This document shows, piece after piece, positions 999-6,308 of a DNA stretch of 6,308 nucleotides (position 1 is the first letter of the stretch; the number at the start of each line of letters is the position of its first letter). The notes below the pieces were generated by a model, which searched no databases, had not been told where the DNA came from, and was given only the letters and a program-made list of their open reading frames with translations. Both the position numbers and the translations under genes were made by a program. This stretch comes from a virus (lineage: Duplodnaviria > Heunggongvirae > Uroviricota > Caudoviricetes): the IMG/VR virus record IMGVR_UViG_2671180405_000010, one strand, 5' to 3'.

Positions 999-1289
999 TT
1001 AACTGTTTTTGCCTGGATACTGTCTTCGAGAATGCACAATATTTACTACTTCTATGCTTGATGCTGTTACTCGGTAAAGGATGATGTAGTTAGGATGAGT
1101 TACAATTTCACGAAGACCAAGAACTCGCTCGCTTGGAGGATACAGGTAAGGATGCTCTGTGAGCGGCAAAACGGATGTTTCAATTCGAATTTTCATTCTG
1201 CGTGCTGCCGCGGGATTTTCTTTAGCTATGTAGGCTACGATCTGGCGCAAATCATCACGAGCAGATGGTAGCCATAAAACGGGTAACAT
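999..1289 (-). CDS. parE: Type II toxin, RelE/ParE superfamily (ParE2-like), 96 aa
   Basis: Translation (MLPVLWLPSARDDLRQIVAYI...EHPYLYPPSERVLGLREIVTHPNYIILYRV...) matches the ParE-family pattern as I recall it. Size is typical, and the start overlaps the antitoxin stop by one base (TAATG). Confidence 0.88.
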   Translation of the reverse strand: MLPVLWLPSARDDLRQIVAYIAKENPAAARRMKIRIETSVLPLTEHPYLYPPSERVLGLREIVTHPNYIILYRVTASSIEVVNIVHSRRQYPGKNS

Positions 1290-1483
1290 TATTCACCTCT
1301 GTGAGTTGCAGCAGCAATTTGGGCAATAATTTGTTCCATTTCCGCCATTACCTCATCATGCGGAATCGCCGGGCGGGGATCCGCGAGGCTTGCTGCTACT
1401 TTGGCCCGCAGCCATTCGTTGTAACTATTTTCTTGCTCAACTGTCTCAAATTCTGAAACCATTGGGGAAAGGACTGTACTCAT
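1289..1483 (-). CDS. paaA: Antitoxin of the ParE toxin (PaaA2-like), 64 aa
   Basis: Small acidic protein (..SPMVSEFETVEQENSYNEWLRAKVAASLADPRPAIPHDEV..) immediately upstream of and coupled to the toxin gene. AGGAG RBS 8 nt upstream of the ATG. Resembles the PaaA2 antitoxin of E. coli O157 prophages from memory. Confidence 0.82.
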   Translation of the reverse strand: MSTVLSPMVSEFETVEQENSYNEWLRAKVAASLADPRPAIPHDEVMAEMEQIIAQIAAATHRGE

Positions 1484-1502: not shown

Positions 1503-2003
1503 TTAGGCGCGACGGCCTTTTTGTGCAGCTAACCACCGCGCAACCGTACGATCCATTGATTCTTTTTTATCTTTCATCTCCTGAAGCATGTGTTCTTGAT
1601 CTTCTTTCGGAAAAGCTCTGAACGTATGGATTAAATCTCGTTCCATCGGCTCTACGGCAAACGGTAGTTCATCCTCTGTTTGTTCTGTGTCTGCTGGTAA
1701 TGCGACTATGTTATCTTGCTGTGGTTCTCGACAATACATCCTTGCAATTTGCAGCAAATCTACCATGTCTGGCCTGATTGACTCAGGGGGAACTTTCAGT
1801 AAGCCAGCAAACTTTAGAACAGCCTCAAGGTTTAGTGGGGTTTGACCATTTAGGTAGTGACTTACCGCCCCTTGTGTTGAAAACCCCATAATTTCCGCCG
1901 CACGTTCCTGAGTCAATCCCAACTGAGATTTCTTTGCCATCCAGATTTCTTTCAGTCTTCTGGCGGCGTTGAGGTCGGTGTCTGACAATGATTTTCTTTT
2001 CAT
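1503..2003 (-). CDS. paaR: cI-like prophage repressor with XRE-type HTH (PaaR2/RacR-like), regulator of the downstream TA pair
   Basis: HTH signature (LGLTQERAAEIMGFSTQGAVSHYLNG). Same strand as and 19 nt upstream of the antitoxin gene; divergent from the Cro-like gene. Start chosen at ATG 2003..2001 (MKRKSLSD...); the track ORF extends to a GTG at 2033 with no RBS. No obvious S24 peptidase Ser/Lys domain. Confidence 0.8.
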   Translation of the reverse strand: MKRKSLSDTDLNAARRLKEIWMAKKSQLGLTQERAAEIMGFSTQGAVSHYLNGQTPLNLEAVLKFAGLLKVPPESIRPDMVDLLQIARMYCREPQQDNIVALPADTEQTEDELPFAVEPMERDLIHTFRAFPKEDQEHMLQEMKDKKESMDRTVARWLAAQKGRRA

Positions 2004-2114: not shown

Positions 2115-2378
2115 ATGAATCTTGGAGAATATTTGCATCATTTTCATATAACCCAGAGTTCATTTGCTGAGATTGTTGGCGCATCCCAAGGGATGGTCAG
2201 CCACGTTATAACGGGGCGTGCAAAACTTACAGGAGAAAAAATATTACGTTGGTGTGAAGCAACGGGATGGGTGGTGACCCCACATGAGATTGACAGTAAA
2301 ACCTACCCCAACCCAACTGACGGCTTGCCTGCTGAGTTTCAGGCTAACACACAACCATCGGCGGGGGTTGATTCATGA
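2115..2378 (+). CDS. ydaS: Cro-like HTH regulator (YdaS-like), about 87 aa
   Basis: Divergent from the repressor. HTH-like segment (SQSSFAEIVGASQGMVSHVITGRAKL). ATG at 2115 has AGGG 6 nt upstream; the track ORF starts at a TTG at 2088. Stop overlaps the next gene's start (ATGA). Confidence 0.75.
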   Translation: MNLGEYLHHFHITQSSFAEIVGASQGMVSHVITGRAKLTGEKILRWCEATGWVVTPHEIDSKTYPNPTDGLPAEFQANTQPSAGVDS

Positions 2379-2800
2379 AAATCAAGCATGAACACATCCG
2401 CATGGCGATGAAAGCCTGGGCGCATCCGGACGGTGAAAAAGTTCCGGCAGCTGAAATAACCAGGGTTTATTTCGAACTGGGAATGACGTTTCCGGTTCTG
2501 CATAACGACAGCAAGCACAACACGCTTTATCTCAACACCCAAAAGATTTTCCGTTGGCTGGATAAAGACACCCCTGACGCTGTTGAAAAAATTCAGGCGT
2601 TGTTACCTGCGATCGAAAGGGCAATGCCACCTCCGCTGGTGGCTCGAATGCGCAGCCACAGTTCAGCTTATTTTCGGGAACTGGTGGAGACGCATGAACG
2701 ACTGGTGAGAGACGCTGATGATTTTGTCGCAGTGGCAATCGCCGGTTTCAATCAGATGAACCGTGGTGGCCCGGCAGGAAATGCTGTGGCAGTACATTGA
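2375..2800 (+). CDS. ydaT: YdaT-like protein (cII-like regulator, formerly annotated as a toxin), 141 aa
   Basis: N-terminus MKIKHEHI... matches Rac prophage YdaT as I recall it. Position directly after the Cro-like gene with a 4-bp overlap. Confidence 0.8.
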   Translation: MKIKHEHIRMAMKAWAHPDGEKVPAAEITRVYFELGMTFPVLHNDSKHNTLYLNTQKIFRWLDKDTPDAVEKIQALLPAIERAMPPPLVARMRSHSSAYFRELVETHERLVRDADDFVAVAIAGFNQMNRGGPAGNAVAVH

Positions 2801-2871
2801 CTGACAATAGCCATATCGAATCGCTCCCGGCAACTCGTGAGTAAAAAGATTCGGTATCAGAAGAGGTGAGT

Positions 2872-3936
2872 ATGGCTAACGCCTGGCTCAGATTATGGCA
2901 TGACATGCCAAATGACCCTAAGTGGCGAACAATTGCCAGGGTGTCAGGGCAGCCAATTGCAACAGTGATGGCAGTGTATATCCACCTCCTGGTGAGCGCG
3001 TCACGAAATGTCACGCGAGGTCACATTGATGTCACGACAGAAGATTTGGCAAGTGCGCTCGACGTGACAGAAGAGGTAATTGATTCAATTTTGCAGACGA
3101 TGCAGGGGCGGGTACTTGATGGTGATTTAATCACTGGATGGGAAAAACGCCAGGTGCTTAAAGAGGACAACGGCAATATTTCGCAAACCGCAAAATCTCC
3201 TGCAGAGCGCAAGAGGGCGCAGCGAGAGAGGGAAAGAAAGCGGGAACAAAATGGCGATTGTCACGGCGCGTCACGAAATGTCACGCACATGTCACGACGA
3301 GTCACGACAGATACAGATAAAGATACAGATAAAGAAGATCAAAACACTATGGTCCATGGCGTAAAAAACGCCACGAACCAGGCAGGGGATGTTCAGACCG
3401 TCAATCCTGGTCAGCCAGCAGGCTCGACACCGGAAGCCGATTCAGCGTATGCGCTGAAAGCCGATTCGGGCGCTGTGCAGCAGGTGATGACCGCAAGGCC
3501 GGAGCAATCACTCCAACTGCAGCAGCCTGAAGCCGATTCCGCCATTCAGCGGGAAGCCGATCGGGTAGCCCCGGAAAACACCGGGCAGCCTGTGGGACGA
3601 GTGGATTATCCGGATGTGTTCGAACAGGTCTGGCGGGAATACCCGTTGCGTGCCGGGGCAAACCCGAAGAAATCCGCATTCAGTGCCTGGAAGGCCAGAT
3701 TGCGCGAGGGGGTGCCACCAGAGACCATGCTGGATGGTGTGAGGCGTTACGCGAGATACCTGGCGGCGACCGGGAAAGCGGGAACGGAATTTGTTCAGCG
3801 AGCGACGACGTTTTTTGGGCCGGACCGGAATTTTGAAAACCCCTGGTTGCTCCCGGTAAGCGGCACGAACAACCAGCGTTGTGTGAATCATATTTCTGAA
3901 CCGGATACCGAAATTCCGCCGGGATTCAGGGGGTGA
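2872..3936 (+). CDS. ydaU: Phage replisome organizer / replication initiation protein (YdaU-like, lambda O analogue), about 354 aa
   Basis: ATG at 2872 with AAGAGG RBS 5 nt upstream. N-terminal region (WLRLWHDMPNDPKWRTIARVSG...) resembles phage replisome-organizer DNA-binding domains; C-terminal region (..VWREYPLRAGANPKKSAFSAWKARL..) resembles a conserved phage replication C-terminal domain. Contains internal DNA repeats and is followed 6 nt later by a DnaC-like gene. Confidence 0.85.
   Translation: MANAWLRLWHDMPNDPKWRTIARVSGQPIATVMAVYIHLLVSASRNVTRGHIDVTTEDLASALDVTEEVIDSILQTMQGRVLDGDLITGWEKRQVLKEDNGNISQTAKSPAERKRAQRERERKREQNGDCHGASRNVTHMSRRVTTDTDKDTDKEDQNTMVHGVKNATNQAGDVQTVNPGQPAGSTPEADSAYALKADSGAVQQVMTARPEQSLQLQQPEADSAIQREADRVAPENTGQPVGRVDYPDVFEQVWREYPLRAGANPKKSAFSAWKARLREGVPPETMLDGVRRYARYLAATGKAGTEFVQRATTFFGPDRNFENPWLLPVSGTNNQRCVNHISEPDTEIPPGFRG
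2996..3334. repeat. Iteron-like array inside the organizer gene: nine GTCACG/GTCACA hexamers in two clusters plus a tandem 12-bp A-rich repeat
   Basis: GTCACG at 3000, 3010, 3031, 3260, 3270, 3280, 3291, 3301 and GTCACA at 3020, spaced 10-11 bp. A perfect 21-bp direct repeat GCGCGTCACGAAATGTCACGC occurs at 2996-3016 and 3266-3286. ATACAGATAAAG is tandemly repeated at 3311-3334. Confidence 0.55.
3433..3563. repeat. Four copies of GAAGCCGAT(T)C within the organizer gene linker
   Basis: Copies at 3433-3443, 3457-3467, 3529-3539 and 3553-3563 (last copy imperfect). Spacings are 24, 72 and 24 bp, all in frame, encoding E/K-A-D-S/R peptide repeats. Confidence 0.4.
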
Positions 3937-3942
3937 TGTGGC

Positions 3943-4689
3943 ATGAAAAACATTGCGGCAGCCGGGGTTCTTGAACGTATTCACAGACTTGCACCACAGG
4001 GGGCGGTTCCACCGTACCGGACGGTGGAGGAGTGGCGGGAATGGCAACTTGCTGAAGGACGAAAACGCAGCGAGGAGATTAACCGCCAGAATCGCCAGTT
4101 GCGGGTGGAAAAAATCCTGAATCGTTCGGGCATCCAGCCTCTGCACAGCAAATGCTCGTTTGCGAATTATCAGGTGCAGAACGACGGGCAAAAATACGCG
4201 CTGAGCCAGGCCAAATCCATAGCTGACGAACTGATGACCGGGTGCACGAATTTTGTGTTCAGCGGTAAAACCGGCACCGGGAAAAATCACCTTGCAGCGG
4301 CGATGGGTAACCGGCTGATGGCGAAGGGGCGCAGCGTGATTATCGTCACCGAGTCTGATGTCATGAGCGTGTTGCATGACAGCTACGACAACGGCAAATC
4401 CGGTGAAAAATTTTTACAGGAGCTTTGCGGGGTTGATTTGCTGGTCCTGGATGAAATAGGCATTCAGCGGGAGACGAAAAACGAGCAGGTGGTATTGCAC
4501 CAGATAATTGATCGCCGGACAGCATCACTGTGCAGTGTCGGGATGTTAACAAACCTGAATCATGCCGCAATGAGCACGCTTCTTGGTGAGAGGATTATGG
4601 ACCGCATGACCATGAACGGTTGTCGGTGGGTGACGTTTAACTGGGATAGCTGGCGTTCAAATGTCAGCTTTCCGGGAGTTGTGAAGTAA
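3943..4689 (+). CDS. ydaV: DnaC-like replicative helicase loader (AAA+ ATPase, IstB/DnaC family), 248 aa
   Basis: Walker A (FSGKTGTGKNHLAAAMG) is near-identical to the DnaC motif as I recall it; Walker B (LLVLDEIG). Located directly after the organizer gene, as for lambda P or DnaC-type loaders. Confidence 0.9.
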   Translation: MKNIAAAGVLERIHRLAPQGAVPPYRTVEEWREWQLAEGRKRSEEINRQNRQLRVEKILNRSGIQPLHSKCSFANYQVQNDGQKYALSQAKSIADELMTGCTNFVFSGKTGTGKNHLAAAMGNRLMAKGRSVIIVTESDVMSVLHDSYDNGKSGEKFLQELCGVDLLVLDEIGIQRETKNEQVVLHQIIDRRTASLCSVGMLTNLNHAAMSTLLGERIMDRMTMNGCRWVTFNWDSWRSNVSFPGVVK

Positions 4690-5451: not shown

Positions 5452-5833
5452 ATGGCAAAAGTATTTACACAGGAAGAGCGGGAAAAAATTAAGGGGCAGG
5501 TTGTTGAACTCGTACGCCAGAGTGGGCGCGAGACGTTACGACAACTGGAAGCTAAAACCGGGGCGACAAGATATTTAATAAGCGTTCTCGCCAGAGAGCT
5601 GGTTGCCAGTGGGGATGTATACAACTCTGGCTACGGGTTATTCCCGTCTGAACAGGCTCGTAAGGACTGGCAAAACGCCCGCAAAAAACTCTCGAGGGCA
5701 AAGCTGAAGAAACCATCTGTGGTTGATCCGGACCTTATCTGGTCATTACCAGACGGAGAAATACGCCGCTACGACAGACATCAGAACATAATCTGTCGCG
5801 AGTGCCGGAAGAGTGAAGTTATGCAGCGTGTAC
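5452..5833 (+). CDS. Hypothetical protein, 5' portion; interrupted by the N-run and possibly continuing to a stop at 6181-6183
   Basis: ATG at 5452 (MAKVFTQEEREKIKGQ...), 15 nt after the previous stop. The reading frame is open up to the N-run. If the N-run length is accurate, the frame reconnects to ...GFLSG and a TAA at 6181-6183. Contains a CxxC motif (CRECRK) just before the gap. Confidence 0.55.
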
Positions 5834-6165
5834 NNNNNNNNNNNNNNNNNNNNNNNNNNNNNNNNNNNNNNNNNNNNNNNNNNNNNNNNNNNNNNNNNNN
5901 NNNNNNNNNNNNNNNNNNNNNNNNNNNNNNNNNNNNNNNNNNNNNNNNNNNNNNNNNNNNNNNNNNNNNNNNNNNNNNNNNNNNNNNNNNNNNNNNNNNN
6001 NNNNNNNNNNNNNNNNNNNNNNNNNNNNNNNNNNNNNNNNNNNNNNNNNNNNNNNNNNNNNNNNNNNNNNNNNNNNNNNNNNNNNNNNNNNNNNNNNNNN
6101 NNNNNNNNNNNNNNNNNNNNNNNNNNNNNNNNNNNNNNNNNNNNNNNNNNNNNNNNNNNNNNNNN
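5834..6165. other. Run of 332 N (assembly gap or masked sequence)
   Basis: Directly visible in the sequence. It lies inside an apparent CDS. Confidence 1.
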
Positions 6166-6308
6166 GGCTTTCTATCAGGGTAATTTTCAGAAGGTGCTGT
6201 TGTGAGCCAAATTAACAATCGGAACTTCGTGAAGAGAAAGCATAATCCAAAATCTGAATAATTAAGTTCAGCACTGTGGTGATGCTGCCAACTTACTGAT
6301 TTAGTGTA

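Follow-up and report, generated by a model that had tools for sequence, protein, structure and literature searches.

In phage lambda, iterons and an AT-rich tract lie in the middle of gene O, and in Stx phages extra iterons add 13 amino acids to the O protein (PMC7466680). The Bacillus phage SPP1 carries oriL inside gene 38, whose product, the replisome organizer G38P, binds direct repeats beside an AT-rich unwinding element, with the loader gene following (PMC6316719). In Staphylococcus aureus, the winged-helix domain of SaPI Rep reads penta-/hexanucleotide iterons, present in 6-12 copies around an AT-rich region (PMC9371898). Here we describe an array of short, regularly phased repeats within the replication initiator gene of IMGVR_UViG_2671180405_000010, a 6,308-nucleotide stretch of DNA from a virus of the Caudoviricetes (the whole stretch is called the window below, and all positions refer to it). 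Positions 3000-3349 are, in our judgment, very likely a lambdoid prophage replication origin embedded in its own initiator gene. A first-pass annotation of the sequence had proposed that the array is an origin inside the initiator gene, and the sequence analysis supports that proposal; binding of the initiator and activity of the origin are what we infer from it.

The gene and the elements of the array are as follows.

2872..3936, plus strand: replication initiator ("phage replisome organizer") gene, 354 amino acids; phrog_3729 "replication initiation protein", E=3e-250
3000..3036, plus strand: iteron cluster 1, in codons 43-55, which code for the last part of helix 29-45 and for the variable loop ahead of the helix-turn-helix
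3000, 3010 and 3031, plus strand: GTCACG, cluster 1
3020, plus strand: GTCACA, cluster 1
3063..3068, minus strand: lone inverted hexamer (CGTGAC on the plus strand), in codons 64-66 (D-V-T)
3260..3306, plus strand: iteron cluster 2, in codons 130-145, at the start of the disordered interdomain linker
3260, 3270, 3280, 3291 and 3301, plus strand: GTCACG, cluster 2
2996..3016, plus strand: perfect 21-bp two-iteron unit GCGCGTCACGAAATGTCACGC, copy 1
3266..3286, plus strand: the same unit, copy 2, an exact repeat 270 bp from copy 1
3307..3349, no strand assigned: A-rich tract of GATACA/GATAAA repeats, candidate DNA unwinding element, encoding TDTDKDTDKEDQ
3311..3334: two tandem copies of ATACAGATAAAG, a duplicated A-rich 12-mer

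Set beside lambda and the Stx phages 933W and P27, the locus has the same plan: the origin would lie inside the initiator gene, in the region coding for the interdomain linker; an AT-rich tract comes after repeated initiator sites; origin and N-terminal part of the protein go together, as do the C-terminal part and the helicase-loading partner; and the gene is placed alike in a cI-cro-cII-like operon. Extra iterons lengthen the protein in the Stx phages and here alike, by seven amino acids for a 21-bp insertion in a relative from Escherichia albertii. The lambda likeness drawn by the first-pass annotation holds for iterons and then an AT-rich segment within an initiator gene; it fails for iteron size, spacing and the two-cluster layout. 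A lambda iteron measures ~19 bp, has internal symmetry, lies about two helical turns from the next and is bound by dimers, whereas the window has asymmetric 6-bp cores at one-turn intervals, in two clusters separated by 224 bp, one of them inside a folded DNA-binding domain. The initiator, moreover, is unrelated to the O family, and the loader is DnaC-like, unlike lambda's P. For a two-part origin there is a precedent in satellite phage P4, where ori and crr hold short octamer repeats in two regions that are bound by the initiator and are both needed for replication; in P4, unlike here, kilobases separate the two regions, alpha is a primase-helicase protein and the repeats lie outside the coding sequence of the DNA-binding domain.

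The SPP1 arrangement resembles that of the window in having repeats within the organizer's own gene and two separated binding regions, oriL and oriR (PMC6316719), but the SPP1 regions are ~13 kb apart and constitute separate origins, and the clusters here lie within one gene. The SaPI origin is located downstream of rep rather than within the gene, with oppositely oriented iterons to either side of the AT-rich region, and Rep is itself a helicase; in contrast, the array in the window is internal to the initiator gene, and the encoded initiator has no ATPase domain.

Nine GTCACG/GTCACA hexamers in two one-turn-spaced clusters, a perfect 21-bp repeat and a tandem A-rich 12-mer behind the second cluster had been reported by the first-pass annotation, and all are found at the positions given; the inverted hexamer, absent from that count, adds a tenth copy, which encodes the turn of the helix-turn-helix in an AlphaFold2 model of the protein. 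The gene thus contains regular short repeats, spaced at 10, 10 and 11 bp in cluster 1 and at 10, 10, 11 and 10 bp in cluster 2. All nine GTCACG hexamers of the window, counting both strands, fall within 307 bp (3000-3306), where 2.6 are expected window-wide, and nine sites placed at random would be confined to 307 bp or less with a probability of ~4e-10. The complete 46-kb genome of phage Tritos has 9 of its 25 GTCACG hexamers inside the initiator gene, with the others at 0.35 per kb, and no GTCACG pair at 10 or 11 bp occurs outside that gene in the genome. Both copies of GCGCGTCACGAAATGTCACGC share a reading frame and encode the peptide ASRNVT, the 21 bp of the unit corresponding at once to seven codons and to 2 x 10.5 bp; across the array as a whole, the hexamers are translated in all three frames, as A-S-R / M-S-R, V-T and G-H / C-H. 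A search for DnaA boxes (TTATCCACA, with up to 2 mismatches) found 22 in the window, where 16.4 would be expected, and only one of the 22 falls in 2990-3350; a DnaA-dependent, oriC-like origin was rejected for want of a DnaA-box cluster. No known structured RNA was matched in Rfam at gathering thresholds anywhere in the window.

Evidence that the repeats are maintained as DNA comes from homologous genes. A scan restricted to one genome per species yielded 36 loci encoding relatives of residues 1-160 at 43-98% identity, from Enterobacterales, Pseudomonas, Bordetella, Acidovorax, Aquitalea, Chromobacterium and others, and GTCACG clusters are present at the same two offsets in ~24 of these. Codon alignment of 21 homologues (~64-91% protein identity; Gamma- and Betaproteobacteria) shows that the 11 fourfold-degenerate sites inside hexamers (codons 43, 44, 47, 48, 50, 54, 55, 65, 141, 144 and 145) are frozen, with a mean of 0.19 bits and a range of 0-0.96, whereas the 33 fourfold sites elsewhere are saturated, with a mean of 1.64 bits and a range of 1.14-1.96 (Mann-Whitney U=0, p=4e-7). 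Constraint extends to each part of the array: values are 0-0.55 bits at the cluster 1 sites (codons 43 to 55 of this set) and 0-0.96 bits at those of cluster 2 (codons 141, 144 and 145), and the third base of codon 65, in the inverted copy, is identical in 18 of 18 sequences. Spacer codon 49, which falls between two hexamers, reaches 1.78 bits. The core comprises exactly six bases, with uninformative flanking positions, and most homologues have GTCACG where the window has GTCACA at 3020. Phasing is likewise retained: of 162 spacings between adjacent copies across the homologues, 102 are of 10 bp and 28 of 11 bp, 130 in all at 10-11 bp, with 6 more at 21 bp. These comparisons bear out the earlier suggestion that it is the DNA motif rather than a peptide repeat that is conserved, and the alignment of homologues proposed as its test shows hexamers and phasing kept beyond what the protein needs; as read from the aligned sequences, selection acts on the DNA motif, not on the peptide.

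The E. albertii locus (L004, 1629-1681) carries a 21-bp, seven-codon insertion in cluster 1 that adds two hexamers, an arrangement in which the array has grown by two helical turns with the reading frame kept. The linkers of five family representatives (P0143, P0174, P0175, P0188 and P0198) contain runs like NVTDVTDVTKNVT, which, to judge from the protein, imply in-frame hexamer arrays of 9-bp period.

Immediately behind cluster 2, the base composition changes: the tract at 3307-3349 is 28% GC and 58% A on the plus strand, in a gene that is 55% GC overall. In 28 of 30 homologues, the 30-nt segment with the lowest GC in the gene begins ~0-20 nt past the last iteron, even where the gene is 65-68% GC. 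Within the 12 codons past the last iteron, GAT and GAC are used at 67:2, compared with 202:222 elsewhere in the gene (p=3e-17), and AAA and AAG at 59:9, compared with 140:155 (p=1e-9). By this measure of codon usage, the A/T-richness of the tract is maintained through synonymous codon choice. In composition the tract is an AT-rich element beside the repeats, and it is a candidate for an unwinding role.

Homologues further removed show that the motif changes with the initiator variant. Besides GTCACG there are at least three classes, and each occupies both clusters, with positions in the gene and phasing unchanged.

GTAACG: loci L022 and L024
GAACGC: loci L029, L030, L032 and L036
GTAACGC: loci L031 and L033

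When the gene is divided into region A (gene nt 115-215) and region B (gene nt 331-520), the commonest 5-mer of region A recurs 2.86x in its own region B, as opposed to 0.23x for the motifs of other classes; in the DNA examined, clusters 1 and 2 never disagree in class. The inverted copy follows suit in L024, a GTAACG locus, in which a synonymous change of codon 65 from GTG to GTT makes that copy GTAACG. An exhaustive protein search (E <= 0.001; 2395 clusters at 50% identity, with 110 usable representatives) gave the same picture from the encoded peptides, the class of the loop peptide matching that of the linker peptide in 68 of 69, 19 of 20 and 8 of 10 cases. Each motif class is tied to a sub-clade of the N-terminal domain, and because the classes are clades, the number of independent motif switches is small. 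In L033, a long repeat similar to the 21-bp unit of the window is common to both clusters, which suggests exchange of sequence between them. Comparison of L026 with L022 and L024 produced no consistent candidate for specificity residues.

The initiator gene was assigned the ATG at 2872 in preference to the GTG at 2866, since homologues begin MANxW, and its close relatives are named "phage replisome organizer" at NCBI. AlphaFold2 divides the protein into a winged-helix domain (residues 1-95), a basic helix (110-128), a disordered linker (~134-224) and a helical C-terminal domain. The N-terminal domain is modeled confidently, with helices at 3-11, 16-25 and 29-45, a loop at 46-55, helices at 56-63 and 67-77, and a hairpin at 78-86 that completes the winged-helix topology; the loop carrying cluster 1 accepts insertions. 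Pfam contains no family that matches the protein at E <= 0.001. Phage_rep_org_N (PF09681) aligns over its whole model (residues 5-125) but scores 12.8 bits against a cut-off of 23.3, and TIGR01714 scores 15.4 bits against 49.8; both fall short of membership, and a distant homology of the N-terminal domain to Phage_rep_org_N is possible from sequence. The C-terminal domain has a below-threshold match to the C-terminus of DnaT. Assignment to the lambda O family was rejected, nothing O-like appearing at E <= 10.

The genes around the initiator are listed below.

999-1289, minus strand: ParE toxin, immunity region
1289-1483, minus strand: PaaA2 antitoxin, immunity region
1503-2003, minus strand: cI-like helix-turn-helix repressor, immunity region
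2115-2378, plus strand: Cro-like gene (Pfam HTH_3), part of the early rightward operon, which continues into the initiator gene
2375-2800, plus strand: YdaT/CII-like gene (Pfam YdaT_toxin), early rightward operon
3943..4689, plus strand: DnaC/IstB-like AAA+ helicase-loader gene (IstB_IS21, 3e-19; phrog_50 "DnaC-like helicase loader")

The region matches the type of the paaR2-paaA2-parE2 arrangement of cryptic prophage CP-933P in E. coli O157:H7 (PMC8630535). The encoded loader is 80% identical to YdaV of the K-12 Rac prophage (tblastn against L001) and is presumed to be the partner of the initiator's C-terminal domain. Its gene is missing from phage Tritos and from most of the distant loci, and at 32105-33638 of Tritos (L119) the initiator and array are followed instead by a hypothetical gene of 140 amino acids; the absence in Tritos argues that a phage-encoded loader is dispensable for the module of N-terminal domain and iterons. 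The C-terminal domain of the initiator is no more constant, being found in full at one other locus only and replaced by a DnaT DNA-binding domain in the E. albertii protein. Because the N-terminal domain is the sole part constantly linked to the repeats, it is by parsimony the part that would bind them. In isolated Escherichia phages (Tritos, Evi and others) the initiator gene region is 97-98% identical to that of the window, and the module also occurs in isolated temperate phages of Pseudomonas and Aeromonas. DNA matching 2800-4000 is present in 2524 of 5426 complete E. coli genomes, with most of the segment in 1646; a search of PLSDB for use as a plasmid replicon gave prophage-like or phage-like records only. 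A run of 332 N at 5834-6165 interrupts a DUF977 gene that starts at 5452.

Taken together, these features suggest a mechanism in which each step, from initiator binding through looping, melting and helicase loading to origin activity, is inferred. Protomers of the initiator would bind head to tail, through the N-terminal winged-helix domain, to the 6-bp GTCACG cores, one to each helical turn, with four sites and one inverted copy in cluster 1 and five sites in cluster 2. Contacts between proteins would join the clusters across the intervening 224 bp, wrapping or looping the DNA, and the resulting strain would melt the adjoining (GATACA/GATAAA)n tract at 3307-3349. The swappable C-terminal domain, which is DnaD/DnaT-like, would then recruit host DnaB, here by way of the phage DnaC-like loader. 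As an element of a familiar kind in a common initiator family, such an origin is unsurprising in principle; its unusual feature is that cluster 1 occupies a variable loop of the DNA-binding fold. A survey of full-text literature found neither these repeats nor an origin for this initiator family described, and an earlier mention is possible.

Several points weigh against the assignment. Helix 67-77, at the usual recognition position, is acidic; Foldseek matches of the N-terminal domain, nearly all of them winged-helix DNA-binding proteins, are weak (E > 0.4), and a profile search of PDB sequences found no solved relative of this domain. The two-cluster layout is not universal, as L028, L034, L035 and L037 have no clear cluster 1. 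Since the homologues are mutually related and do not make independent samples, the statistics given above take the saturated synonymous sites as their internal control. The full-text survey found no experiment on this initiator family. Finally, the copy in the window may itself be inactive, because it sits in a prophage fragment bounded by IS1 ends: positions 1-57 match the 3' end of IS1 (annotated as an IS1 family transposase), and 6276-6308 match a sequence with thousands of copies in plasmids of enterobacteria, in keeping with the IS1 terminal repeat. The fragment probably comes from Shigella, since a partial protein identical to one of its own is assigned to Shigella sonnei.

Two other accounts of the array grant it a binding protein. 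The repeats could be true initiator-binding sites that serve control, through autoregulation, copy-number handcuffing or exclusion of related phages, with initiation elsewhere. Plasmid iterons also act in control, some relatives lack cluster 1, which in the window is 224 bp away from the A-rich tract, and pairing or looping would suit two separate clusters; cluster 2, however, abuts a conserved AT-rich tract in the standard layout of iterons and unwinding element, and the complete Tritos genome has no second array. A control role could in any case coexist with origin function, and we regard control alone as improbable. That the hexamers are instead bound by another protein, whether a repressor, Cro- or CII-type regulator or a host factor, and act in gene regulation or some other process is suggested by the several DNA-binding proteins encoded immediately upstream. 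Yet the Cro-, YdaT- and cI-like neighbors are absent from ~20 distant loci that retain the array, and in the CP-933P-type immunity region the operators of PaaR2 and YdaS map to the intergenic region (PMC8630535), the equivalent of which in the window has no GTCACG; a reading of the hexamers as repressor or Cro operators was accordingly rejected. A host factor would leave the differing motif classes among relatives unexplained, and DnaA boxes, as noted, are not enriched. We give recognition by some other protein very little probability.

The remaining accounts require no binding at all. If the repeats and A-rich tract marked a recombination boundary between N- and C-terminal modules, the repeats being a by-product of slippage or gene conversion, one would understand why the C-terminal domain is swapped just past this region, why AAAGATACAGATAAAGAT recurs in the unrelated ydaU of K-12, why the A-tract changes length in 6-bp steps and why the clusters have long identical units in common. 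Slippage nevertheless leaves unexplained a 6-bp core frozen at synonymous sites between free spacers in proteins of ~64-91% identity, and accounts neither for the strict 10-11 bp phasing nor for the converted inverted copy. A boundary is also compatible with an origin, the two coinciding in lambda, and the chance that a boundary is all there is appears very slight. Selection on a repeated peptide that the protein needs has in its favor that ASRNVT occurs twice and that loop and linker share a 4-residue peptide in 40 of the 110 representatives, but these shared peptides arise because the same frame is used in both clusters in those cases; the three frames otherwise give unrelated peptides, and fourfold positions are invariant inside the hexamers only, so that a peptide-level explanation is scarcely credible. 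No rival covers together the frozen sites, the phasing, the switching of class in both clusters and the inverted copy, and the AT-rich tract held by codon choice.

Some further observations concern the region behind the iterons. In viral contigs that are 98-100% identical (L039-L118), the tract equivalent to 3307-3334 measures 12, 18, 24 or 30 nt, and all ten hexamers are intact in 73 of the 80 contigs despite this variation; in its sequence the GATACA/GATAAA tract behaves like an in-frame microsatellite that changes length in steps of 6 bp. A second element adjoins it.

3350..3380, no strand assigned: imperfect inverted repeat (hairpin) of 13 bp with a 5-nt loop, directly 3' of the A-rich tract

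The hairpin has a DNA folding energy of -8.7 kcal/mol (z = -3.1) and a terminator-like score on the minus strand, and apart from it a promoter and terminator scan found nothing that exceeded shuffled sequence. It falls within the exchangeable C-terminal portion of the gene, lacks conservation in the family and is an uncertain part of the origin. Among relatives from Serratia and Pantoea (L035 and L037), ACTACG and its inverse are found just past the N-terminal domain, at gene nt 329-365, and the inserted segment shows a weak likeness to MUG113 of the GIY-YIG-like group, at 18.3 bits, below the cut-off.

The K-12 Rac prophage shares with the window the operon position, that of ydaU in ydaS-ydaT-ydaU-ydaV, a YdaV-type loader, AAAGATACAGATAAAGAT and the C-terminal tail ...IPPGFRG. 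The "ydaU-like" label of the first-pass annotation is thus apt for the position in the operon and inapt for the N-terminal domain: that of YdaU is DUF1376, unrelated in sequence, and homology to K-12 YdaU/DUF1376 was rejected, as the BLASTP alignment is confined to the final 19 residues and the low-complexity linker and there is no DUF1376 match. The repeats differ as well. In Rac (L001, 4012-4122), TGTTCAAAC occurs three times in ydaU, at +393, +426 and, inverted, +450, directly before AAAGATACAGATAAAGAT, which therefore stands as in the window behind different repeats; a second site in ydaU amounts to a single TGTTCAA at +149, not significant alone. The Rac prophage has been described as having an active origin, oriJ (PMC3945230). 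The stretch of TGTTCAAAC repeats and AAAGATACAGATAAAGAT in ydaU is a candidate position for oriJ.

One further possibility concerns the protein encoded by cluster 1. The loop at residues 43-55 (S-R-N-V-T-R-G-H-x-D-V-T), beside the wing, might help to read the iterons, in which case the sites would encode their own recognition surface. No other part of the folded domain, which is otherwise highly conserved, is as class-specific as this loop, and the loop sequence tracks the motif in all three frames; the basic helix at residues 100-125 is also class-specific, however, and some members have no cluster 1, so we consider the idea unlikely. Were it true, a single exchange between clusters would shift the specificity of origin and initiator together, and new classes such as GTCACG, GTAACG and GAACGC would arise without a non-functional intermediate.

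For the family as a whole, the predicted cores, inverted copy, unwinding tract and motif classes make replication of these prophages directly testable. Origins could be annotated from sequence, and cross-reactivity and incompatibility classes would be predictable from the motif. The locus is, in addition, a clean natural case of overlapping codes, with a DNA signal translated in three frames within the coding sequence of a folded protein domain.

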